From: an uncultured virus (IMG/VR IMGVR_UViG_3300009152_000029)
Lineage: Duplodnaviria; Heunggongvirae; Uroviricota; Caudoviricetes
Strand: one strand, 5' to 3'
Length of the DNA stretch: 20,000 nt
IMG/VR virus record: IMGVR_UViG_3300009152_000029
The notes beneath the pieces were generated by a model that saw only the letters and a list, made by a program, of their open reading frames with translations, was not told where the DNA came from and searched no databases. Position 1 is the stretch's first letter; each line of letters starts with the position of its first letter. The position numbers and the translations under genes are program-made. Shown here one piece after another: positions 564 to 19,711 of this stretch.

Positions 564-585
564 AGGAATGGTCTTTACCATTCCT
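564..585. repeat. dispersed palindrome copy 1
   Basis: AGGAATGGT-CTTT-ACCATTCCT. Confidence 0.9.
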
Positions 586-1431: not shown

Positions 1432-1453
1432 AGGGATGGTGAATACCATCCCT
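1432..1453. repeat. dispersed palindrome copy 2
   Basis: AGGGATGGT-GAAT-ACCATCCCT. Confidence 0.9.
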
Positions 1454-2492: not shown

Positions 2493-2514
2493 AGGAATGG
2501 TAAATACCATTCCT
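2493..2514. repeat. dispersed palindrome copy 3
   Basis: AGGAATGGT-AAAT-ACCATTCCT. Confidence 0.9.
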
Positions 2515-2589: not shown

Positions 2590-3321
2590 ATGTCTATCGT
2601 TTTAAATAATGAATCTTGTCTTGATTTTTTGCCTCGTGTTGCAGATAAATCAGTAAATCTTGTTTTGATTGACCCACCATATACAATTTCACGAGCAACA
2701 GGATTCGAGAGTTGTGGAGAGAAGGGTGTTGAAAGATTTAAGATGTCCTATGAATTTGGAGAGTGGGATAATGAAATCTTTGTTCTTGATAAGGTTATGG
2801 AAGAATCTTATCGTATCCTCAAGCCAGGTGGAACATTAATTTGTTTCTATGACTTGTGGAAAATCGAGACTCTTAAGAATTGGATTGAGAGTGCCAAGTT
2901 TAAGCAACTCCGGTTTATTGAATGGGTAAAGACAAATCCTGTTCCTATCAATTCGAAGATTAATTATCTCACCAATTCAAGAGAGATAGCCCTTACTGCT
3001 ATCAAAGGAAGTAAACCAACATTTCATTCTCAATATGATAAGGGAATTTATGAGTTTGCAATCTGTCATGAGAGAGACCGTTTCCATCCTACTCAAAAGC
3101 CTCTCAATTTACTGCAAGCTTTAATTACCAAACACTCCAATGAAGGCGATACTGTTTTGGATTGTTTTGCTGGCTCTGCTTCTTGTGCAGTGGCTTGCTA
3201 TAACACTGGACGAAACTTTATGGGTTGTGAATTGGATGAAACTTATTACACAAAAGCAACAGAGAGAATCGCTAAATTAAATGACAAAAGTACAAATGTT
3301 TCTTCAAGCGTCACAACCTGA
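2590..3321 (+). CDS. DNA methyltransferase, N6-adenine/N4-cytosine beta class
   Basis: DPPY (motif IV) N-terminal, HPTQKP, VLDCFAGSAS (motif I) C-terminal. Confidence 0.93.
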   Translation: MSIVLNNESCLDFLPRVADKSVNLVLIDPPYTISRATGFESCGEKGVERFKMSYEFGEWDNEIFVLDKVMEESYRILKPGGTLICFYDLWKIETLKNWIESAKFKQLRFIEWVKTNPVPINSKINYLTNSREIALTAIKGSKPTFHSQYDKGIYEFAICHERDRFHPTQKPLNLLQALITKHSNEGDTVLDCFAGSASCAVACYNTGRNFMGCELDETYYTKATERIAKLNDKSTNVSSSVTT

Positions 3322-3877
3322 TAGTGATGGTAAAACTCGTCTTTGGCTATATAGTGAATTGGAAACTTTATATCCCGGCGTAGAATTCCAAACTAAAAAT
3401 GGTGGAGATTGGAACCGCTCTGATGGACAATTAAAAGATTTCATTGTTCATAGAGAAAAAGATAAAAATCGCACTATAGGAATTCGTCTTGATGGTTATA
3501 GAGAAACATCAATTGAAAAACGTATACGAACTGATATTTTCAAATCAATAAGAAAACAAAGATGCCGTGTTGTTGATGTTGGTGGAGAAAATATCGAGTG
3601 TGACCATAAAGACGGACGATATAGTTCTGATACTTATAATAGCGTAGAAAATCAAAATGAAGATGATTTTCAGCCATTATTGAGGAACGTAAATTTATCA
3701 AAGAGAACTCATTGTAAGACGTGTGAGGAAACAAATGAAAGATACGATGCAAAAAGGCTTGGTTATTCATTTGGATGGATTGTTGGAGAGTCTAATTATG
3801 CAGGCACTTGTGTTGGATGCTATTGGTATGACCCTAGGCAATTTAATAAAGTAATCTCCAAAGATTATAAACCTTGA
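3281..3877 (+). CDS. IceA1/NlaIII-family HNH restriction endonuclease
   Basis: Motifs FL..QP..G, NGGxWxR, IRLxGY, IEcDHKDGR, DDFQxL, KRxxCKxC, CVGCYxYDP as recalled for H. pylori IceA1; overlaps the MTase 3' end. Confidence 0.8.
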   Translation: MTKVQMFLQASQPDSDGKTRLWLYSELETLYPGVEFQTKNGGDWNRSDGQLKDFIVHREKDKNRTIGIRLDGYRETSIEKRIRTDIFKSIRKQRCRVVDVGGENIECDHKDGRYSSDTYNSVENQNEDDFQPLLRNVNLSKRTHCKTCEETNERYDAKRLGYSFGWIVGESNYAGTCVGCYWYDPRQFNKVISKDYKP

Positions 3878-4593: not shown

Positions 4594-4666
4594 GGGCGAT
4601 TAGCTTAATGGTTAAAGCAGGGGACTCATAATCCCTTGAGTGGGGGTTCGAGTCCCTCATCGCCCA
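4594..4666 (+). tRNA. tRNA with CAT anticodon (likely Ile2, else elongator Met)
   Basis: Acceptor GGGCGAT/ATCGCCC (1:72 paired, so not initiator), GGGGA-CTCATAA-TCCCT, TTCGAGT T-loop. Confidence 0.9.
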
Positions 4667-4704
4667 TTGTTTCTGGTTGGTTGGTGTTTTGCATGTCCTA
4701 CTCC

Positions 4705-4738
4705 TCCCCTCATTGAAATATATGAGGGGATTTTTTTT
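4705..4738 (+). terminator. intrinsic terminator
   Basis: TCCCCTCAT/ATGAGGGGA plus T8. Confidence 0.8.
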
Positions 4739-4782
4739 GACACTGCTATAACTTTATGATATATTGTTTGTAGAGAAATATT

Positions 4783-4974
4783 ATGCCAAACGATACATTA
4801 AACTATTTATCAGACAAATCAGAACACGATTTGCTGGTCATTCTTGAGGGATTTAAACTACTCTTGGCTGATGCAGAATTATTTGATATGCTTGCTGAAA
4901 AGTTAGATATATCTGACGATGTTCTTGTTGAAATCCGTGAAGATATTAGCAAGTTTATGGCAGACGAGGTATAA
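4783..4974 (+). CDS. hypothetical acidic protein
   Basis: 63 aa ORF after TTGACA(4737)-N17-TATATT. Confidence 0.7.
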   Translation: MPNDTLNYLSDKSEHDLLVILEGFKLLLADAELFDMLAEKLDISDDVLVEIREDISKFMADEV

Positions 4975-4984
4975 TTTACCTATT

Positions 4985-5071
4985 GGAAGAGTGAGCAGAA
5001 TGGTATTGCAACCGCCTTGAAAGCGGTCTCACCCTTGACGGGGTGTGCGGGTTCGAATCCTGTCTCTTCCT
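4985..5071 (+). tRNA. tRNA-Ser (TGA)
   Basis: Acceptor GGAAGAG/CTCTTCC, ACCGC-CTTGAAA-GCGGT, long variable arm, TTCGAAT T-loop. Confidence 0.92.
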
Positions 5072-5471: not shown

Positions 5472-5493
5472 AGGCATTGAGTATACAATGCCT
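5472..5493. repeat. dispersed palindrome copy 4
   Basis: AGGCATTGA-GTAT-ACAATGCCT (one inner mismatch). Confidence 0.8.
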
Positions 5494-5587
5494 GATTTTA
5501 TTATTAAAAATATTTGTTTTGGTGTTCCCAATACGTTGACAATGTATATATTATCCGAGTATACTATCAATGAAAGGAAGCCATACA

Positions 5588-5920
5588 ATGAGTGTAACAG
5601 TTGATTCGGATAAGCGTAAGGTTGGCAATCCTGAATGGAATTTTGTTCTTCCATATAATGAAGCCAGACTTATTGTCAAAAAGTATAAATTCAAATCAAT
5701 GAGAGAATATACTGAATGGGTGAGAGAAGAGAAGCCATATGGTTTATCTACCAATCCATATCAAGTATATACTCGTCGTGGTGAGTGGGTTGGTACTGCT
5801 CACTATCTTGGTAAAATTGATTCAATTGTCCAAGAAGACCAGAACGTCCACGAAGAAAAGCCCGTTAAATTCTGGAAGATTAGTAACATAATCAAACAGA
5901 TATTCGGTCTTGGTCAATAA
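5588..5920 (+). CDS. integrase-repeat (INT_rpt-like) domain protein
   Basis: LPYNEAR..V....FKS.REY.......P..LS.NP...Y...GEW.....YLG repeat motif; promoter TTGACA(5536)-N18-TATACT, SD AAGGA. Confidence 0.7.
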   Translation: MSVTVDSDKRKVGNPEWNFVLPYNEARLIVKKYKFKSMREYTEWVREEKPYGLSTNPYQVYTRRGEWVGTAHYLGKIDSIVQEDQNVHEEKPVKFWKISNIIKQIFGLGQ

Positions 5921-5973
5921 ACAATTAGGATACACAATGAAGTGTATCCTAAAATTTTTTGTCAATAAGCTCT

Positions 5974-5995
5974 AGGAATGGTAATTACCATTCCT
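5974..5995. repeat. dispersed palindrome copy 5
   Basis: AGGAATGGT-AATT-ACCATTCCT. Confidence 0.9.
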
Positions 5996-6121
5996 GAAAT
6001 TTTTATGCAAATAAAAAATATATTCTAAAATATATAGCATAGTTTGTTGACAACATATAGTAGTTAGGTTATACTACTGGTGTAAGAACAACATAGTTAG
6101 TTCTTAGTTGAGAGAAGCCAA

Positions 6122-6607
6122 ATGGAAGATATTTACCCGTACAGTTATGCAAAGTCCTATGCAATGGGCAGTAAGTTCAAGACGATTAAACAGTACTCCG
6201 ATGCTGTCAAGGCAGAAGGTCTCAGTTTTCACGCTGACCCTAAGCGTTACTCCGAGTATACCTCAGCCCATGAGTTCTTGGGTTACACCAAAGAGGAATA
6301 CACCAAAGTCAAGTGTTCCGTAATGGTGTCTAACCGAAACCAATCTGCGGTCAATGCTAAGATTAGGGCAACTTGGGCAAAGAACCGGGTATCACGTCAA
6401 GAAACGGCTGGTCAACTACCTTTGCCAAAGCCTAGCCAGTTGAAGGCTTTTACACCTGAAGAGGTTGTTGACATTCTAGTAAAGTCTAATGCAAGCAGTG
6501 AATACATTGCGGACTTTATCAAGACGCACAAGGTCAACAGTGAGTATGCTGTTGCGGTTTTGATTGACTTGTTGAAGCAAAGCCTTCCATCCGCAGTCAC
6601 AGTCTAA
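6122..6607 (+). CDS. protein with N-terminal integrase-repeat-like domain
   Basis: YPYSYAK.......FKT.KQY..........ADP..Y.......EFLG; promoter TTGACA(6047)-N17-TATACT; terminator 6616-6641. Confidence 0.7.
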   Translation: MEDIYPYSYAKSYAMGSKFKTIKQYSDAVKAEGLSFHADPKRYSEYTSAHEFLGYTKEEYTKVKCSVMVSNRNQSAVNAKIRATWAKNRVSRQETAGQLPLPKPSQLKAFTPEEVVDILVKSNASSEYIADFIKTHKVNSEYAVAVLIDLLKQSLPSAVTV

Positions 6608-6662
6608 CCTGACTATCTCCCCTCCAGAAGTGGAGGGGAGAATAATCTTGACAAAATACTTA

Positions 6663-6683
6663 AGGCATTGTAGTACAATGCCT
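6663..6683. repeat. dispersed palindrome copy 6
   Basis: AGGCATTGT-AGT-ACAATGCCT with perfect TTGACA/TGTCAA at 9 bp on both sides. Confidence 0.9.
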
Positions 6684-6756
6684 ATTGACAATTGTCAAAT
6701 TTTTTCATAAAATACTTATGCATGAAAATGCAAAATAAAGTTTCAAGGTAAATGAA

Positions 6757-6957
6757 TTGAAGAAAATTCACCTCTCTAATTTCCGTAAGAAGTTTGATGA
6801 CAAGTCTTACCAGGCTGTCAAGGATGCTATTGGTAAGAATGCTTTTTTAGCTAATGAAATCAATATCAATAAGATTATTGATAGTATTACAGACCCAGTC
6901 ATTAAGAAGAATTTTGTCAAGTGGTCTGATGGTTATGATTTTGCAATTCTTAATTAA
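6757..6957 (+). CDS. hypothetical protein
   Basis: 66 aa ORF, TTG start uncertain. Confidence 0.55.
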   Translation: MKKIHLSNFRKKFDDKSYQAVKDAIGKNAFLANEININKIIDSITDPVIKKNFVKWSDGYDFAILN

Positions 6958-7094
6958 AAAGGTTTACTCTTAACATTTTTAGTAATAAGAAACTAGTTTG
7001 GTTCTCACGGAGTAAAAAAAGAAAAATTTCTGTTTTTACCATCCAGATGTTGATAGGTATATTGCCCTTAAGTCAATAATCTAGCAGGCCAACA

Positions 7095-7127
7095 AATATC
7101 CCTCTTTTCAGTAAGAGGGATATTTTT
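7095..7127 (+). terminator. intrinsic terminator
   Basis: AAATATCCCTCTT/AAGAGGGATATTT. Confidence 0.7.
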
Positions 7128-7178
7128 ATTTGACAACTCCCAATATATGCGTTATTATATACACATAAGGAGAGCGAT

Positions 7179-7526
7179 ATGGGACTTGATAACCTTTGGA
7201 AAAAAAATGACAACGAAGACGCTATGGTAGAAGGCGATTTTTGCATCTGTGGCGGTCTATGTTCTGACAATGGAAACTCTTCATTTCGTGGTAAAGTTTA
7301 TGCTCGTTTTGTAGAAGATGTCACTGGTGTTTGTTTGTATGGCGACCCAAAAACTTCCAAAATTTCAAACGAAACTGTAAAGCAGATGGCAACTGACTTG
7401 GAAGAAACTGAATGGCGAGATTCTTACATCCAAAACTATGATATTGAAGAGCAAGAGTTTAAAGACCTTGCTAGGATGTTTAGACTTCACGCTGATGCTG
7501 GTCATTACTTGGTTGCTTTTTATTAA
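7179..7526 (+). CDS. hypothetical phage protein (MGLD start)
   Basis: TTGACA(7130)-N17-TATTAT, SD AAGGAG. Confidence 0.85.
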   Translation: MGLDNLWKKNDNEDAMVEGDFCICGGLCSDNGNSSFRGKVYARFVEDVTGVCLYGDPKTSKISNETVKQMATDLEETEWRDSYIQNYDIEEQEFKDLARMFRLHADAGHYLVAFY

Positions 7527-7780
7527 TGACTATCAATCTACGTAAAAACATAGCACGGTTTATCTACATTATTGACCAAACAACAAATGTAGAAAGCCGT
7601 GCAAAAATTCTCAAAGAACTAGACCTAACTGAAAATGAATTTCAGGAGCTGGTAGTGAATCTATTGAAATTTAGTAATTCTAATAATAGGGAATTTTATT
7701 GCTGCAATCCTGAATATCATGGATTTATTGAAACATTCAAAATTATTTCAGAAAAAACAAATACAGAGTTCTTAATCTAA
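7526..7780 (+). CDS. hypothetical protein
   Basis: TAATG translational coupling with upstream ORF. Confidence 0.7.
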   Translation: MTINLRKNIARFIYIIDQTTNVESRAKILKELDLTENEFQELVVNLLKFSNSNNREFYCCNPEYHGFIETFKIISEKTNTEFLI

Positions 7781-7892
7781 GTGCATCTGCGTTGAATATT
7801 ATGTATAATATTATCAGACCTTAGTCAAATAAGGCAATAAAAAACAGGCAAGACCCCTCCACTTGCCTGTTTTTTATTTAACAATTATCTTA

Positions 7893-7914
7893 AGGTGTGG
7901 TAAAGACCACACCT
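7893..7914. repeat. dispersed palindrome copy 7
   Basis: AGGTGTGGT-AAAG-ACCACACCT, after terminator hairpin near 7836-7878. Confidence 0.9.
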
Positions 7915-8064
7915 TTATAAATTTGTCAAAATATTTTTTTCAGCTCTAAAATAGGTAACTTTTTTTGTTACATATCTCCCGATTTCTATTGCACACTTTT
8001 AAAGTATGCCTTATACTATCTTTGTCAGTAAGGAAAAGCCCTTAACTGTTGTTTGGAGAAGACA

Positions 8065-9477
8065 ATGTTTGAAGACCTTACACCCTTGAACGAGATTCGT
8101 TCAGTGGAACCAACCGTTTCATTCACCCGTAACCAGAACTCTGGTCACACACTTAATTCCGCTCTTCTAGAGCCTATCGACAACTCATTCGATAGCGGTG
8201 CTACACAAATCAGTGTATATCTTTCAACCTATAATGGCAAGAAGGTTCTCGTTGTTGCAGACAATGGCAAGAAGGCTTTGACACCATCCATTATGCATAT
8301 GATGGCAAGCGAAGGCTGGACTACCAAAAAGGTAAGCACCATTGTATCACCTAACCTTGGCAAGAATGGTTCGGGATGGAAGAACTTTGTATCCAAGTTC
8401 TCAACCACTGGTCATTCTACCGTCATCATGAAATGCGAAGATGAGTGCATTCACGCAATGGAATACAACCAGAGCAATATGAAAGCAATGGACGATTGGA
8501 ACGTGTCCGTACGCAAGTGCCACTCTCGCATCAATCCTGATGACCCAGCCCTTTCAATTTGGAAAGAGGTCACAGATGAGAATGGCAACTTTATGAACCA
8601 CGGTACTATCGTTGTGGTTCATAACCTGAAAGACGAAGCCTCCTCATTCCTTAAGAATGGACTGAACTTTAACCCGAATGGTTTAAAGAACCTTACTAGC
8701 ATCGGGGCGCAACTTGGTGAGGTATACCAAAAGCGTATCGAAAAGGGTGCATCTCTTAAGGTCGGTCTGACTTATGCAACTCTTCAGGTAGTCAAGCCTT
8801 TAGACCCAATGCTACGACAAACTCCTGTTCAATCCAAGGTGTTCCACGTTGGCAATGAGGATGTGAAGGTGTCTGTGTTCCTTTTGCCAGAGCGTTCCGA
8901 GTGCAAACTATTGCCCAAGGATGTGTACAATCGCCCTGTGAATAACCAAAACTCTGGTGTGTATTTCTACCGTGATGGTCGATTGCACCTAGACAGCAAG
9001 TGCCGTCCTATGCACCCTGCAATTGGTAACAAGGCAATCGAAGCGTACATTGATGGTTATGCCAACGGTACAATTGGCAAGCGAAAGACCACTATTTCGA
9101 GAGAGAGCCGTTCTTGGGTAGTGTTTGCCGACAGCCATGGTCGTGCTTCAAGAGTGCGAATCACCATTGAGGTTTCCTCTAACCTTGACAAGGATTTCAA
9201 TGTAAACCAAATCAAGACAGAGATAGACTTGACCAATGATTCAGTTGCCGACATCGCACTATGGTGTTACCAGATGCCCAAGGAATACGACCAGTATCGC
9301 AATAAGAATGCATCGTACACCTATGTGGACAAATGGCGTAGCCTTACAAAGGGATACCGCAGTGATGTCCTCAAGGCAAGGAAGCACGTTCTTGCAACCT
9401 TTCGACCTGAAGAGTTGAAAATTGCCAAACTGGTACTGAGCAAGTTCACTGAGAGCCTCGGCGAGGTGGTCGAATAG
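8065..9477 (+). CDS. GHKL (MORC-like/HATPase_c_3) ATPase domain protein
   Basis: ALLEPIDNSFDSGA (N box), VVADNG (G1), LGKNGSGWK (G2), HGTIVVV; S5-like GVYFYRDGRL; SD GGAG; promoter TTGCAC(7989)-N17-TATACT. Confidence 0.85.
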   Translation: MFEDLTPLNEIRSVEPTVSFTRNQNSGHTLNSALLEPIDNSFDSGATQISVYLSTYNGKKVLVVADNGKKALTPSIMHMMASEGWTTKKVSTIVSPNLGKNGSGWKNFVSKFSTTGHSTVIMKCEDECIHAMEYNQSNMKAMDDWNVSVRKCHSRINPDDPALSIWKEVTDENGNFMNHGTIVVVHNLKDEASSFLKNGLNFNPNGLKNLTSIGAQLGEVYQKRIEKGASLKVGLTYATLQVVKPLDPMLRQTPVQSKVFHVGNEDVKVSVFLLPERSECKLLPKDVYNRPVNNQNSGVYFYRDGRLHLDSKCRPMHPAIGNKAIEAYIDGYANGTIGKRKTTISRESRSWVVFADSHGRASRVRITIEVSSNLDKDFNVNQIKTEIDLTNDSVADIALWCYQMPKEYDQYRNKNASYTYVDKWRSLTKGYRSDVLKARKHVLATFRPEELKIAKLVLSKFTESLGEVVE

Positions 9478-9483
9478 ACCACC

Positions 9484-9516
9484 AAGCCCCCTCCTTCGGG
9501 AGGGGGCTTTTTTTTT
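9484..9516 (+). terminator. intrinsic terminator
   Basis: AAGCCCCCTCC-TTCG-GGAGGGGGCTT plus T-tract. Confidence 0.9.
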
Positions 9517-9556
9517 GTCAAGTCAAGCTGTCAAATTATTTTTGCAACTTTATCGA

Positions 9557-9578
9557 AGGTATGGTGACCACCATACCT
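9557..9578. repeat. dispersed palindrome copy 8
   Basis: AGGTATGGT-GACC-ACCATACCT. Confidence 0.9.
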
Positions 9579-10997: not shown

Positions 10998-11306
10998 ATG
11001 ATACTGAAAAATGCCATTTTTGAGCCCTCCCATACAATGAAAGAAATAGTAACAGCAATTTATCAAAATGGAGAGTTTACAGATAATAATATCTTAAAAC
11101 CTCATTTGACAGATAGAATTGGAATTAGAATGAAGTTTCCCGAAGGCGCTGGATGTATCTTATGGACTAACGGGAAGAAATACTATGCAGTTTGCGAAGC
11201 GTTTGGAACAGTCTTCACTATTAATATTCCACGTAACATAGGTGATGACATTTGGGATAGATTTAAAACATACTATGAAGGAAATTATTCTTACAAACCA
11301 TTCTAG
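10998..11306 (+). CDS. hypothetical protein
   Basis: Part of ORF 10953..11306; TATAAATA at 10958 upstream of ATG 10998. Confidence 0.65.
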   Translation: MILKNAIFEPSHTMKEIVTAIYQNGEFTDNNILKPHLTDRIGIRMKFPEGAGCILWTNGKKYYAVCEAFGTVFTINIPRNIGDDIWDRFKTYYEGNYSYKPF

Positions 11307-11326
11307 GGATGATAAATATCATCCCT
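11305..11326. repeat. dispersed palindrome copy 9
   Basis: AGGGATGAT-AAAT-ATCATCCCT, overlapping the stop codon. Confidence 0.85.
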
Positions 11327-11803: not shown

Positions 11804-11825
11804 AGGAATGGTAAATACCATTCCT
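11804..11825. repeat. dispersed palindrome copy 10
   Basis: AGGAATGGT-AAAT-ACCATTCCT. Confidence 0.9.
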
Positions 11826-11903
11826 TAAAAAACTTGTCAAATATATTTATTTTCTTGACATCTATACAATATGTGTTATACTATTCGTGTAAGGAGTTAG
11901 GAT

Positions 11904-12425: not shown

Positions 12426-12455
12426 ATAAATCCCAAGAAAAATCTTGGGATTTAT
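12426..12455. terminator. TCCCAAGA-family bidirectional terminator
   Basis: ATAAATCCCAAGA-AAAA-TCTTGGGATTTAT. Confidence 0.75.
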
Positions 12456-12459
12456 CTTT

Positions 12460-12480
12460 AGGTGTGTAAATCACACACCT
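12460..12480. repeat. dispersed palindrome copy 11
   Basis: AGGTGTGT-AAATC-ACACACCT. Confidence 0.8.
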
Positions 12481-12539
12481 GTAAAAATTTGTCAAATAAA
12501 AATATATCCCTTGACTTTCGTCAAGGGATATGATATAGG

Positions 12540-13009: not shown

Positions 13010-13278
13010 GTGGGTCAGTATCCGCATTACAGTAAAAGACCAGAACGGCTAGAATCTATTGCGAGATTCAAACAAGGGTAGCAACCTTGGAGTGGTTAAG
13101 TCCACAATCTTTTACTGAAACCTTGGAGATGGTTGACGCAAACAATCTATCCAAGTGTAATGATTTGTGGTTGGGTGCTATGCTCCTTTTAGGACACGGG
13201 CATCATCGTAGGCAGAGACCATCGAAAGAACTGCCCTTGTGTTACGTACTGGTTGAAATCCAGCTAGCCACAAATCCA
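13010..13278 (+). ncRNA. candidate ~270 nt structured ncRNA with tRNA-like 3' domain
   Basis: Own promoter and terminator, no credible ORF, GC-richer than flanks, many nested stems. Confidence 0.7.
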
Positions 13279-13315
13279 AATAAATCCTCTAAGAATTTTC
13301 TTGAGGGTTTATTCT

Positions 13316-13336
13316 AGTTATGGTAATACCATAACT
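13316..13336. repeat. dispersed palindrome copy 12
   Basis: AGTTATGGT-AAT-ACCATAACT. Confidence 0.85.
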
Positions 13337-13838: not shown

Positions 13839-13872
13839 AAATAAATCCCAAGAATTTTCTTGGGATTTATTT
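13839..13872. terminator. TCCCAAGA-family bidirectional terminator
   Basis: AAATAAATCCCAAGAA/TTCTTGGGATTTATTT. Confidence 0.75.
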
Positions 13873-13874
13873 TC

Positions 13875-13896
13875 AGGGATGGTACTTACCATCCCT
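13875..13896. repeat. dispersed palindrome copy 13
   Basis: AGGGATGGT-ACTT-ACCATCCCT between convergent genes. Confidence 0.9.
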
Positions 13897-14462: not shown

Positions 14463-14611
14463 TGAAAAAATTCAAGAAGTTTATTGAAGAACTGGCTATC
14501 GCATCAGGCACAGAAATGATGCGAGCAAGTCAGATGCGTCCAAGTACTTTCAAGGACAAGTCAAAGTACTCCAGAAAGCAGAAGCACAAGAAAGGTTCCG
14601 AAAATGAGTAG
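14459..14611 (+). CDS. small basic protein with ArfA-like motif (50 aa, not in ORF track)
   Basis: MMKKFKKF...FKDKSKYSRKQKHKK; ATGA overlap, GAGGT SD. Confidence 0.65.
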   Translation: MMKKFKKFIEELAIASGTEMMRASQMRPSTFKDKSKYSRKQKHKKGSENE

Positions 14612-14912
14612 TATTGAAGTGCAAGTAAATGTAGAAGAACTTGATGTTGTAAGACGAAAGTTATCTTTTCAATTAAACAAAGATTTAACATCTGAGGAAA
14701 CAGTTAAATTCTTAATTGAAAGAGAATTTAACATCGCAAAAAAAATTCCCCTTGCAAAAAAATCACCTAATAGAGCTGAAAAATCTGATATCAAAGAATG
14801 CATCTATAATGGTTCTACCTCTGGTGAAGCAATGAAAAAATTAAATGTATCAAGGTCTACATTCTTCAGACACAAAGCAAAAGAGAGAAAGTTGCTAGAG
14901 GAATCTGAATAA
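14604..14912 (+). CDS. C-terminal helix-turn-helix protein
   Basis: GSTSGEAMKKLNVSRSTFFRHK resembles Hin/resolvase-type HTH. Confidence 0.7.
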   Translation: MSSIEVQVNVEELDVVRRKLSFQLNKDLTSEETVKFLIEREFNIAKKIPLAKKSPNRAEKSDIKECIYNGSTSGEAMKKLNVSRSTFFRHKAKERKLLEESE

Positions 14913-14917
14913 ATAAT

Positions 14918-14945
14918 AAATCCCAAGAGAATTCTTGGGATTTTT
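14918..14945. terminator. TCCCAAGA-family terminator
   Basis: AAATCCCAAGA-GAAT-TCTTGGGATTT. Confidence 0.75.
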
Positions 14946-14960
14946 CTTGCATAAAATTTA

Positions 14961-14982
14961 AGGTATGGTAAATGCCATACCT
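14961..14982. repeat. dispersed palindrome copy 14
   Basis: AGGTATGGT-AAAT-GCCATACCT (T-G at inner pair). Confidence 0.85.
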
Positions 14983-15653: not shown

Positions 15654-15926
15654 ATGAGAACTACAAGGAATTCGGATAGGCTTCGTGAGATTTTGTTTTG
15701 TACACGCAATCAGATTGTTTCTCTCAAGGACATTCAGATGGATATGATGCGTATCGACAGTAAAGTGGCAAATCAAATCGCAACACAAATATCTGCTCTT
15801 GAGGAAGTTTACAAGCACCAACTATCGCTTGTCACACAGGCAGAGAATGTAGAGCCAAAGCGTGAAGGTTGGCTTTCTGGTCACTTCAAAACCAAAGAAG
15901 ACCGATTAGCCAACATCATGGATTAA
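15654..15926 (+). CDS. hypothetical protein
   Basis: TTGACA(15601)-N17-TATACT, SD AAGGAGG. Confidence 0.85.
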   Translation: MRTTRNSDRLREILFCTRNQIVSLKDIQMDMMRIDSKVANQIATQISALEEVYKHQLSLVTQAENVEPKREGWLSGHFKTKEDRLANIMD

Positions 15927-16000
15927 ATAAATACCCCAGAGATGGGGTATTTTTCTTGACATTATATATACAATCTGGTATATTTACTGTGGAGGTTGTT

Positions 16001-16150
16001 ATGAAGAACTTGTATGCTAAGAAGTGCTGTTGGTGCAAAGTAGTGGTTCAGCCAGGTCAAGGTAAGTGCTGGAGCTACAATGATAAATGGTGGGTTGGAT
16101 GCCAGAGTTGTTTGGATGATAAGTTCAAAGATGAAGACAAGGAGGCTTAG
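16001..16150 (+). CDS. small CxxC..CxxC zinc-finger-like protein
   Basis: TTGACA(15956)-N17-TATATT, SD GGAGG, CCWC...CQSC. Confidence 0.75.
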   Translation: MKNLYAKKCCWCKVVVQPGQGKCWSYNDKWWVGCQSCLDDKFKDEDKEA

Positions 16151-16178
16151 GCCTCCTATTTTTTTGACATTTTACTTA

Positions 16179-16200
16179 AGGCACGGTATTTACCGTGCCT
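16179..16200. repeat. dispersed palindrome copy 15
   Basis: AGGCACGGT-ATTT-ACCGTGCCT with perfect TTGACA/TGTCAA at 9 bp on both sides. Confidence 0.9.
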
Positions 16201-16278
16201 ATAAATTTTTGTCAAATATATTTTTTAAATTTGCATCTTATATAATTTGTGTTATACTATTGGTGTAAGGAGTTTGAT

Positions 16279-16611
16279 ATGAGAGATTTTATGACCCTTG
16301 GACCAGTTCCATTTGAAGAAGAATGCATCCAAGTTAGCCCAGAAGTTGACTACACTGAAATGCGTAATGAAGTTTTCAAGTTTGTCAACCTTTTAAAAGA
16401 ACGGTTTGTTAACATCCCTGAAAACGCTTATTTTGGTATCAAGCGTGAAAGCCATGACTTCGGTACTTACTTTGAAGCGGCTGTTTATTGGGATACTGAA
16501 GACACTGATTCCCAAACGTTTGCATTCTTTGTAGAATCAAACTTACCAGCACATTGGAGTGACGATGCAAAAATTGACTGGTCAGCTGAATATGTAACTG
16601 CTGGCGAATAA
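16279..16611 (+). CDS. hypothetical protein (HDFGTY motif)
   Basis: TTGCAT(16231)-N16-TATACT, SD AAGGAG. Confidence 0.85.
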   Translation: MRDFMTLGPVPFEEECIQVSPEVDYTEMRNEVFKFVNLLKERFVNIPENAYFGIKRESHDFGTYFEAAVYWDTEDTDSQTFAFFVESNLPAHWSDDAKIDWSAEYVTAGE

Positions 16612-16650
16612 ACTAAAAGAATCCCAAGAAAAATCTTGGGATTTATCTTT

Positions 16651-16671
16651 AGTTATGGTATTACCATAACT
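16651..16671. repeat. dispersed palindrome copy 16
   Basis: AGTTATGGT-ATT-ACCATAACT after TCCCAAGA terminator 16620-16643. Confidence 0.85.
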
Positions 16672-16764: not shown

Positions 16765-17046
16765 ATGAAAAAAATTCTTTTTAACACCAACTATACCAAC
16801 TATACCAATGAAGAGGTAAATATTATTCAAGACACATTGAAGAAAAAAAGTGTTATAATGACTAAATTTACACAGGTAGAAATTGCAGAGATGATGGGAG
16901 TCAAACAGCCACAAGTAAGTAACTGGCTTAATGGTAAGAGAATTCCTACAGCATCTAATTTAGTTAAGTTAGCAGATATATTAGAAGAATACCCTGAAGA
17001 ATTATTAAATAAATTAGAAGTTATTAAGCAAGAGAATAATTTTTGA
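16765..17046 (+). CDS. XRE/Cro-C1 family HTH transcriptional regulator
   Basis: TQVEIAEMMGVKQPQVSNWLNGKRIPTASNLVKLADIL. Confidence 0.88.
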   Translation: MKKILFNTNYTNYTNEEVNIIQDTLKKKSVIMTKFTQVEIAEMMGVKQPQVSNWLNGKRIPTASNLVKLADILEEYPEELLNKLEVIKQENNF

Positions 17047-17115: not shown

Positions 17116-17337
17116 ATGAAACTTGAACAGGTATTGCCAATGCTCCGTGATGGTAAGACTATCACAAGAAGCAAAAAGTGGAATCCTAATTCTACTAATG
17201 TTATCTTGGTAAAACTAGAAGAATCAGAACTTAAATTTAAATGTGTTTGGTCTACTGGTGAAGAAATGAGTTTTTGGGCTTGTTATACTTTAAAGACTGA
17301 AGATGTATTGGCAGAAGATTGGGAGGTAGCAGGATGA
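17116..17337 (+). CDS. DUF2829/Tad2-like protein (leaderless)
   Basis: L..GK.ITR..WN N-terminus and DVLAEDWEV C-terminus; TTGACA(17082)-N16-TATACT-N6-ATG. Confidence 0.7.
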   Translation: MKLEQVLPMLRDGKTITRSKKWNPNSTNVILVKLEESELKFKCVWSTGEEMSFWACYTLKTEDVLAEDWEVAG

Positions 17338-18032: not shown

Positions 18033-18054
18033 AGGTACGGTAAATACCGTACCT
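18033..18054. repeat. dispersed palindrome copy 17
   Basis: AGGTACGGT-AAAT-ACCGTACCT. Confidence 0.9.
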
Positions 18055-18578: not shown

Positions 18579-18600
18579 AGGAATGGTAAATACCATTCCT
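18579..18600. repeat. dispersed palindrome copy 18
   Basis: AGGAATGGT-AAAT-ACCATTCCT between convergent genes. Confidence 0.9.
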
Positions 18601-18653
18601 TACGAATATTGTTAAATAAAAATATCCCTTGACTTTTGTCAAGGGATATGATA

Positions 18654-19655: not shown

Positions 19656-19676
19656 AGTTATGGTTATACCATAACT
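19656..19676. repeat. dispersed palindrome copy 19
   Basis: AGTTATGGT-TAT-ACCATAACT between two terminators of convergent genes. Confidence 0.85.
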
Positions 19677-19680
19677 AAAG

Positions 19681-19711
19681 ATAAATCCCAAGAATTTTTC
19701 TTGGGATTTAT
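19681..19711. terminator. TCCCAAGA-family terminator
   Basis: ATAAATCCCAAGAA/TTCTTGGGATTTAT. Confidence 0.75.

Follow-up and report, generated by a model that had tools for sequence, protein, structure and literature searches.

A structure-selected palindrome with promoter-type boxes at a fixed distance in repeated intergenic cassettes of an uncultured freshwater jumbo phage

The window analysed in this work, that is, the whole stretch of 20,000 nucleotides corresponding to the minus strand of positions 157,729-177,728 in the 358,269-bp IMG/VR virus record IMGVR_UViG_3300009152_000029, belongs to an uncultured freshwater jumbo phage (G+C content 33.7%, completeness estimate 89%). It contains a repeated 52-bp symmetric unit, represented here by the one at 16164-16215, in which a short palindrome is flanked on both sides by a promoter-type hexamer (hereafter, box). 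The comparative analysis of this unit revealed that the palindrome is a structure-selected stem-loop and that the boxes are sequence-selected at a fixed distance from its foot. Composite cassettes of a comparable kind are the promoter-early stem-loops (PeSLs) of T4-like phages, and we tentatively favour, with somewhat less than even confidence, the idea that the unit belongs to a PeSL-like composite cassette provided with an extra hairpin- or cruciform-capable element, which would work as a boundary and joint at the DNA level. The unit at 16164-16215 and its surroundings, together with the second perfect unit of the window, are organized as follows:

16140..16163, + strand: intrinsic-terminator-like hairpin AGGAGGCTTAGGCCTCCT followed by a T-run (terminator scan: seven pairs, five GC, T-run)
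16164..16169, + strand: left box TTGACA, separated from the palindrome by exactly 9 bp
16170..16178: left 9-nt linker, T-rich (family consensus TTTATCTTA), unpaired with the right linker
16179..16200: copy 15, a perfect 22-bp palindrome AGGCACGGTATTTACCGTGCCT with a 9-bp co-varying stem and a 4-nt loop (parts AGGCACGGT-ATTT-ACCGTGCCT)
16201..16209: right 9-nt linker, A-rich and then T
16210..16217, + strand: right box TGTCAAAT, whose TGTCAA part is 16210-16215
16218..16230: A/T tract separating the right box from the real -35
16231..16258, + strand: sigma70-type promoter of the downstream gene as read from the sequence (TTGCAT, N16, TGT-TATACT, extended -10)
16267..16611, + strand: Shine-Dalgarno AAGGAG (16267-16272), ATG at 16279 and a downstream small open reading frame (ORF) without Pfam family
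6648..6698: copy 6 unit, TTGACA-N9-AGGCATTGTAGTACAATGCCT-N9-TGTCAA, with a 21-nt palindrome starting at 6663 and a 3-nt loop

The hairpin at 16140..16163 terminates the upstream gene (ORF 15869-16150), whose TAG stop codon lies inside it, and the right box together with the preceding T's forms an 11-bp mini-palindrome (ATTTGnCAAAT).

A scan for AG...CT palindromes of 21-22 nt, with at most one mismatch in the outer eight pairs, gave 29 matches in a single 28-kb stretch versus 19 in the remaining 330 kb; the family core is present in 27 of the 29, and the GGT..ACC core in none of the 19 outside. The family thus counts 27 copies in the record and 19 in the window, the latter following one another in the same order as they had been numbered in an earlier note on this DNA. 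The 27 copies were aligned with 57 copies from five related virus records, which were located by pattern search and then taken in full or in part. In the resulting 84-copy alignment the 9-bp helix is paired in 99.2% of 756 cells, a figure that is partly circular since membership in the family required near-palindromy (one mismatch was permitted, and none occurs in the outer eight pairs in this genome). Seven of the nine stem pairs exhibit two-sided changes (78 cells), and the outer eight pairs (672 cells) exhibit no one-sided change at all and a single unpaired cell. Indeed, in none of 500 shuffles did pairing or covariation score as high as in the real alignment, and shifting the register by 1-3 columns lowered the pairing to 33-45%. 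Moreover, a relaxed pattern in which stem positions 4, 6, 17 and 19 were free and two mismatches were permitted retrieved 47 sites from the five relatives, all of them symmetric in the outer eight pairs, and one orthologous site carries three different compensated stems in three genomes (AGGCATTG.. / AGGGATTTAC.. / AGGGATTGT..). The loop consists of 4 nt, or of 3 nt in the 21-nt copies (five in this genome), and its two middle bases are free; besides 21- and 22-nt copies, 20-nt and 10-bp-stem variants are found at orthologous sites. The single-strand DNA folds range from -9.1 to -12.8 kcal/mol (z from -3.9 to -6.5).

The covariation stops at the foot of the palindrome. The linkers are paired in 42.7% of cells without covariation, a value accounted for by the column composition, and the helix between the boxes is paired in 67.3%, again without covariation, as follows from the conserved TTG and CAA. 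An extended 52-nt hairpin, such as an RNase III-type site, was therefore rejected: copies 6 and 15 do fold in this way, but in the 84 copies the inner box positions are mostly unpaired and neither these nor the linkers co-vary.

The boxes, in turn, are conserved in sequence and in register. The earlier note had described TTGACA-N9-palindrome-N9-TGTCAA as perfect at 16164-16215 and 6648-6698, and both coordinates and sequence proved to be exact. The right TGTCAA at offset 9 was found again in copies 2, 6, 7, 9, 10, 11, 14, 15 and 17, its variants at the same offset in copies 1, 3, 5, 8, 12, 16 and 18, and the left variants TTGTCA, TTGCAA, TTGCAT, TTAACA, TTGAAA and TTGTGA in copies 1, 3, 4, 5, 7, 8, 10 and 17. 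Among the 19 window copies a perfect left TTGACA is confined to copies 6 and 15, and the 17-nt spacer ends, as previously reported, in TGG (17 copies) or CGG (two copies). The positional enrichment against shuffled sequence, a check set beforehand, turned out to be extreme: within offsets 0 to 19, TTGnnA is found on the left at offset 9 only, in 18 of the 27 copies, and TnnCAA occurs at right offset 9 in 19, against means of 0.21 and 0.18, respectively, and a maximum of 3 in 2000 flank shuffles, although these copies are paralogous cassettes, so that the counts do not correspond to 27 independent events. In the gene-oriented copies the left-box columns are T24 T27 G23 n n A23 and the right-side columns R9-R17 are T27 T22 G18 T22 C24 A27 A25 A23 T19. 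The DNA 5' of the left box differs between copies.

The other palindromes of the window are located as follows:

564..585: copy 1
1432..1453: copy 2, directly after a stop codon and followed by TTATTTTTTT; it can itself terminate here
2493..2514: copy 3
5472..5493: copy 4, left border of a hypervariable island
5974..5995: copy 5
7893..7914: copy 7
9557..9578: copy 8, right border of the hypervariable island
11305..11326: copy 9, abutting a stop codon and followed by a T-run
11804..11825: copy 10, in a canonical cassette with the real -35 at R30 and the palindrome centre at -74.5
12460..12480: copy 11, 21 nt, in a convergent intergenic gap without downstream promoter
13316..13336: copy 12, 21 nt
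13875..13896: copy 13, in a convergent gap
14961..14982: copy 14, with T.G at the loop-closing pair, in a convergent gap
16651..16671: copy 16, 21 nt
18033..18054: copy 17
18579..18600: copy 18, in a convergent gap
19656..19676: copy 19, 21 nt, in a cassette facing the minus strand

Read in gene direction, the canonical cassette consists of a stop codon, a terminator hairpin with its T-run, the left box, 9 nt, the palindrome, 9 nt and TGTCAAAT, followed by about 12 A/T, TTGACA or TTGCAT, N16-17, TGnTATAAT or TGnTATACT, AAGGAG and ATG. A hairpin of -8 kcal/mol or stronger lies within 60 nt upstream in 70 of the 84 units. About half of the copies have a real sigma70-type promoter 40 bp downstream: by eye, a real -35 is found at R28-R31 in about 12-13 of the 27 units; a strict promoter scan (at least 9 of 12 matches) retained nine, the canonical palindrome centres lying at -73.5 to -75.5, about -74.5, from a start inferred from promoter geometry. 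In the remaining units the promoter is farther off or missing, as in the units at 12460, 13875, 14961, 18579 and 19656, which lie in convergent gaps and have none. Conversely, terminator-promoter junctions without any unit exist at 4705-4765, 7094-7158 and 15929-15984. Seven copies past the window end are mirrored and their genes are on the other strand, which implies that the TGTCAAAT side follows the direction of transcription.

Two further families of repeated hairpins were noticed. The family AAATCCCAAG-loop-CTTGGGATTT (12426-12455, 13839-13872, 14918-14943, 16620-16643 and 19681-19711) is the terminator right before many palindromes, and its 3' arm provides a TTGGGA left box. The family ATATCCCTTGAC-loop-GTCAAGGGATAT (12504-12531, 18622-18649 and more past the window end), whose stem contains TTGAC/GTCAA, lies in convergent gaps or serves as the terminator that precedes minus-strand cassettes.

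This organization bears on the possibility that the palindrome works in RNA, as a hairpin of read-through or long early transcripts serving as back-up terminator, 3'-end stabiliser or processing site. A strong co-varying hairpin placed at gene 3' ends, with a sense-strand loop rich in A (160 A vs 116 T), would suit such a role, as would the T-run of the terminator-like copies abutting a stop codon (1432, 11305 and 13875), of which those at 1432 and 11305 are candidates for self-termination. However, with 70 of the 84 units behind another strong hairpin little RNA should arrive at the palindrome, and its consensus 3' flank is AAAAAATTTT, without an immediate U-tract. A stem with adjacent T-tract, the feature of intrinsic terminators, is restricted to a minority (1432, 11305, 13875, 20275 and 20900), five of the 27 copies of this genome having at least six T in the 9 nt after the palindrome; hence, given the usual flank and the separate upstream hairpin, a general terminator role was ruled out for most copies. 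An RNase III site would require the 52-nt hairpin, which does not co-vary, and no Rfam family corresponds to the element: at gathering score, Rfam recognised four tRNAs in the window and nothing for the palindrome. Finally, no G.U pair occurs in the 672 outer-stem cells despite 78 double changes, which is unusual for a helix formed by one RNA strand. We consider an RNA-level function rather unlikely; the lack of G.U-type intermediates makes us lean towards a palindrome acting at the DNA level, possibly as hairpins on both strands, as a hairpin on either strand or as a cruciform.

The earlier note had interpreted the unit as a symmetric double promoter whose two -10 elements coincide and lack the final T. 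Part of this description holds. On both strands a -35-like hexamer, a 17-bp spacer, TGG and the centre follow one another, and the distance of the boxes from T9/A14 (17 bp) falls within the 16-18-bp spacer of sigma70 promoters; likewise, the putative -10 never ends in T: among the 22 copies of 22 nt its position 6 is G in copy 14 and A in the other 21, a consequence of the symmetry of the palindrome. The centre itself, however, behaves as the loop of a co-varying stem: it does not combine the A at position 2 and the T at position 6 of a sigma70 -10 (an A at position 2 is found in 57 of 69 copies), and only 5 bp of the hexamer are left when the palindrome has 21 nt. Since a promoter spacer does not need the co-variation of the stem, we read the centre as a hairpin and not as a -10. 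In the part of Warman et al. (bioRxiv 10.1101/2020.01.31.928960) considered here, positions 1, 2 and 6 of the -10 are described as key, and at symmetric promoters that work, position 2 of one -10 hexamer pairs with position 6 of the opposite one, the two starts being separated by 18 bp. The phage unit resembles these bidirectional bacterial promoters in that opposite-strand elements coincide around an AT-rich centre between inward-facing -35-type hexamers; nevertheless, where theirs pair 2 with 6, its hexamers fully coincide (position 1 pairs with 6), with A at position 6 on both strands and a centre of 5 or 6 bp, which is one base short of the working arrangement. The data are compatible with a cruciform-capable element.

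A weaker form of the promoter idea is that of a non-firing two-way mimic, which might dock the host sigma70 RNA polymerase through the -35, the TGn and the first two -10 bases and serve as decoy, roadblock or capture site after a terminator, possibly gated by cruciform extrusion. The 17-bp promoter geometry is exact on both strands, and no hexamer of the same composition is as over-represented in the region as TTGACA/TGTCAA (76 vs a median of 14 in 180 permutations). Furthermore, the real promoters of the phage resemble the unit (TGG-TAATAT, TGG-TAAACT and TGG-TATATT are one base from TGG-TAAATA), including the one at 15956 (TTGACA-N14-TGG-TATATT) that the earlier note had quoted and that is present in the sequence as given, and the phage apparently relies on the host core polymerase, with 3-4 sigma-family ORFs and no Pfam-detectable RNA polymerase. 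The mimic is made quite unlikely by the complete lack of T at -10 position 6 in the 22-nt copies (0/22), by an arrangement that is not among the productive symmetric configurations described in the same part of that preprint, by the 3-nt loop of the five 21-nt copies of this genome and the free middle of the loop, by a left box that retains TTG..A only and by the stem covariation, which it leaves unexplained. It is also conceivable that the boundary element itself is a polymerase trap, a cruciform-capable hairpin exactly in the place of the -10, between two inward-facing -35 hexamers, that would catch host sigma70 polymerase in either orientation without firing. It would hold free holoenzyme or the polymerase that comes off the upstream terminator, and supercoiling-driven extrusion would toggle the trap; such a device, which we deem improbable, would insulate adjacent early units from each other and supply the next promoter with polymerase. 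As for the real promoters, their spacers (e.g. 11861-11870) share a conserved (G)TATATACA motif about 2 nt past the -35 (e.g. TTGACAGGTATATACA), which resembles the GGTAnnTACC top of the palindrome.

The bases that do not vary might instead be contacts of a protein. The unit could be the operator of a symmetric (dimeric) DNA-binding protein, either an early regulator of the phage or a host factor, which would sit on the duplex palindrome, touch the TTG/CAA boxes as its outer contacts and insulate about 27 early units, or switch them off, in a co-ordinated manner. The two-fold symmetry extends across the whole 52 bp; AG..CT is invariant, GGT..ACC and CAA are nearly so, and the AGG/CCT foot of the hairpin is conserved. 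Loop position 10 is A in 57 of 69 copies (83%) and position 13 is T in 49 of 69 (71%), neither of which a 4-nt hairpin loop needs. There is about one copy per transcription unit, in the early region only, and one of the genes among the cassettes codes for an XRE-type HTH_3 protein (16765-17043, E 9.8e-13); a small ORF at 14604-14909 has a sub-threshold HTH-like match only (CENP-B_N, E 0.0042, 17.2 bits, below the cut-off of 21.2). On the other hand, six of the nine stem positions vary, in every case with compensation, and a protein would not enforce pairing at bases that it does not contact; the half-site spacing varies among the 21-, 22- and 20-nt copies and the 10-bp-stem variants; and a repressor would be badly placed with the centre at -74.5 or so relative to the inferred start, or remote from all promoters. 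We regard such an operator as possible but not probable.

Further information comes from the relatives. The five related records align to the region at 66-94% nucleotide identity, with blocks reordered and inverted, and of the 34 ends at non-collinear junctions 22 are no more than 150 bp away from a palindrome centre, compared with 29% for random points. The 4.1-kb island between copies 4 and 8 (5472-9578) is replaced by 2.1 kb and 2.6 kb in two relatives (G002 18851-20955 and G003 5649-8207, respectively); the gene sets are largely different in the three genomes, the two replacements having about 0.8 kb in common at 65% identity, and homology stops at the bordering family hairpins. In addition, a junction of one relative fuses two cassettes of this genome in inverted orientation, the switch falling inside the box-palindrome segment, and contigs from freshwater DNA metagenomes display further alternative joints at cassette positions.

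On the whole, structure selection, the 9-bp register, the place after terminators, the restriction to a promoter-dense region and the synteny breaks at cassettes are all computed directly, and they support the PeSL-like cassette with an extra boundary and joint element. According to this model, the 52-bp unit would be one module of a repeated intergenic regulatory cassette in an early accessory-gene region, and the palindrome would be the joint that gives each small early gene module the same end, usable in either orientation; among relatives, modules would have been exchanged, inverted and replaced at the cassettes. The element would act on the DNA, where it would separate transcription units and also serve as a joint for recombination; the flanking boxes would not belong to a firing promoter but would be contacts selected for their sequence or conserved relics of a -35.

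Several observations weigh against this model. Not only breakpoints but also alignment ends in general (57 of 103) lie within 150 bp of a palindrome centre, nearly as often, so that the signal says "between genes" more surely than "at the palindrome", and the joints in metagenome contigs can be assembly artefacts, as happens at repeats. The 22-bp core, with its variable stems, is short for homologous recombination, a recombination role by itself needs no self-complementarity, and profile searches found no site-specific recombinase in the 358 kb. The perfect symmetry might be preserved by template-switch conversion between the arms and not by selection. The stem-loop of a PeSL is a terminator, while most units here have a separate upstream hairpin and a T-run usually 5-6 nt past the palindrome. 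Lastly, TTG..CAA at 9 bp and the A at loop position 10 are better explained by contact with a protein or with RNA polymerase.

The comparison with PeSLs nevertheless is the closest. As described in the sections of Comeau (2014; PMC4122927) used here, these are cassettes of an AT-rich region, a stem-loop, a sigma70 promoter and a Shine-Dalgarno, located in hyperplastic regions and near indels, and degraded half-PeSLs retain extra -35 boxes. The phage cassettes share with them the repeated intergenic position among small variable genes, the series of AT stretch, stem-loop, near-consensus sigma70 promoter, Shine-Dalgarno and start codon, a possible link to insertions, replacements and inversions between relatives, and degraded copies keeping extra -35 boxes (PMC4122927, same sections). 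A hyperplastic small-gene region is present, and a stem-loop lies just upstream of a sigma70-like promoter and Shine-Dalgarno, but in most units the upstream gene is not terminated by the conserved stem-loop, and 70 of 84 have a separate strong hairpin upstream. The phage unit differs also in being a perfect co-varying palindrome with fixed boxes 9 bp away, in occurring without a promoter as well, and in belonging to a phage that is not a recognisable T4 relative and has a DnaE-type polymerase. We therefore file it as a variant of the PeSL kind, working like a composite promoter-terminator cassette and failing one defining feature. Such cassettes have so far been described mainly in T4-like phages, and a comparable system would here be present in an unrelated uncultured freshwater jumbo phage, the new addition being a clean structure-selected palindrome with fixed promoter-type boxes. 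Should the element work as a boundary or recombination joint of the DNA, it would account in part for the way in which the anti-defence and host-takeover genes of giant phages are shuffled; should it be bound by a regulator or by RNA polymerase, it would be a compact, portable insulator of early transcription. The cassette, about 130 bp long, can be tested on a plasmid.

In integrons, the structure rather than the sequence of attC sites is conserved, with inverted triplets AAC/GTT and one site per gene cassette. This recalls the phage unit, which has a conserved structure, inverted triplets at both ends and a place after each gene cassette; here, however, the triplets are TTG/CAA, the flanks do not co-vary, extrahelical bases are missing and a cassette has its own promoter. 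Repetitive extragenic palindromes (REPs), in turn, are imperfect, have a GTAG-type head and are linked to REP-associated tyrosine transposases (RAYTs). Like the phage units, REPs and the bacterial interspersed mosaic elements of enterobacteria are short co-varying palindromes in many copies after genes, convergent gaps included; the phage units are perfect and lie behind terminators and beside promoters. One might then speculate that the unit is the site of a structure-specific recombinase or transposase comparable with those of attC or REP/RAYT, each gene being an excisable cassette. Consistent with this are the hairpin with a conserved foot and the inverted TTG...CAA triplets at a fixed distance, its location at the 3' end of every small gene, irrespective of a promoter behind it, and the gene order shuffled among relatives. 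Searches for tyrosine recombinases (the integrase profile PF00589), serine recombinases and Y1 transposases (PF01797) gave no match in the 358 kb of a record that is 89% complete, so that absence is not proven; moreover, the boxes differ from the attC AAC/GTT, they do not co-vary with each other, and, differently from integron cassettes, every cassette has its own promoter. On this basis attC, REP and IS200-type sites were set aside, and we judge the analogy very improbable.

Phage N4 possesses three hairpin early promoters, with 5-7-bp stems and 3-nt loops, read by its virion RNA polymerase. The likeness consists of a DNA hairpin arising from supercoiled DNA upstream of early genes and recognised through its structure; in the phage studied here there is a sigma70-type promoter for every gene. 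An N4-like or phiKZ-like phage polymerase promoter was set aside because Pfam detected no such polymerase in the record, which is a weak argument, since the PF00940 control scored in no genome. Motifs of sigma54, NtcA, T4-late and SPO1 gp28 were dropped after by-eye comparison with their consensus sequences, and a miniature inverted-repeat transposable element with target duplication was discarded, the left box usually not being TTGACA and terminal repeats not being seen. The Spo0A box was also rejected: the phage TGTCAAA has A for G, one base off the TGTCGAA consensus given in the part of PMC2731898 cited here, and the source is freshwater. A literature search for intergenic palindromic repeats near phage early promoters, or for cruciforms upstream of phage promoters, found nothing matching.

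As regards the region, all 27 copies are confined to about 27 kb of the 358 kb, and the three 10-kb bins that contain 25 of them also carry 17 of the 40 near-consensus sigma70 promoters of the genome. The genes of the region are small, and 36 of the 43 ORFs of the window have no Pfam family. A protein with a Tad2-like anti-Thoeris domain (17116-17334, E 4.2e-09) adjoins the XRE-type HTH protein, and the two together seem to fit an anti-defence/early accessory region. At 2590-3874 a gene for an N6/N4 DNA methylase (E 4.4e-32) overlaps one for an IceA/NlaIII-like nuclease (E 2.8e-30), and the two are predicted to form a phage-borne restriction-modification pair. A GHKL ATPase gene is also present, as well as four tRNAs among the cassettes (1531-1815 and 4594-5071: Leu-TAA, Lys-TTT, Met-CAT and Ser-TGA).

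Elsewhere, the genome encodes DnaE, DnaB, gyrase A and B, RecA, RuvB, RecJ, GroEL and DnaK, five giant ORFs of 1220-2855 aa without assigned family, and the sigma70-family ORFs, which are small, comprise regions 2 and/or 4 and all lie outside the palindrome region:

about 64.3-64.8 kb, 69.1 kb, 203.7 kb and 220.0-220.5 kb of the genome record: sigma70-family ORFs

These presumably serve middle or late transcription, and their presence, together with the lack of a Pfam-detectable RNA polymerase, would fit an early region read by the host polymerase. Cultured relatives were not retrieved by megablast, by blastn or by tblastn of a window protein in the phage collection searched, where nothing comparable turned up in a cultured phage and the DnaE-type polymerase shows at most 35% identity to any record; the best matches of the phage DnaK are scattered across unrelated phyla and so indicate no host.

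Some minor observations complete the picture. The sequence of the window differs from the genome record at two positions (3319 and 13073). The low-cover contigs of two metatranscriptome runs show no transcript ends, and the RNA contig of a relative starts at 11834, beside copy 10, at 86% identity, which proves nothing. Between a sigma70-like promoter and the terminator and palindrome of copy 12, a stretch of about 300 nt (13010-13312, + strand) is GC-richer (0.40-0.47) and holds only a TTG-start ORF of 76 aa without Pfam family; its RNA fold reaches -98.6 kcal/mol (z -4.77), and Rfam gave nothing for it at E<=1. In both metatranscriptome runs its depth is the highest by a wide margin (224.9 and 133), adapter-like loose ends are seen at 13021-13046, and the stretch is a candidate for an abundant structured phage RNA.

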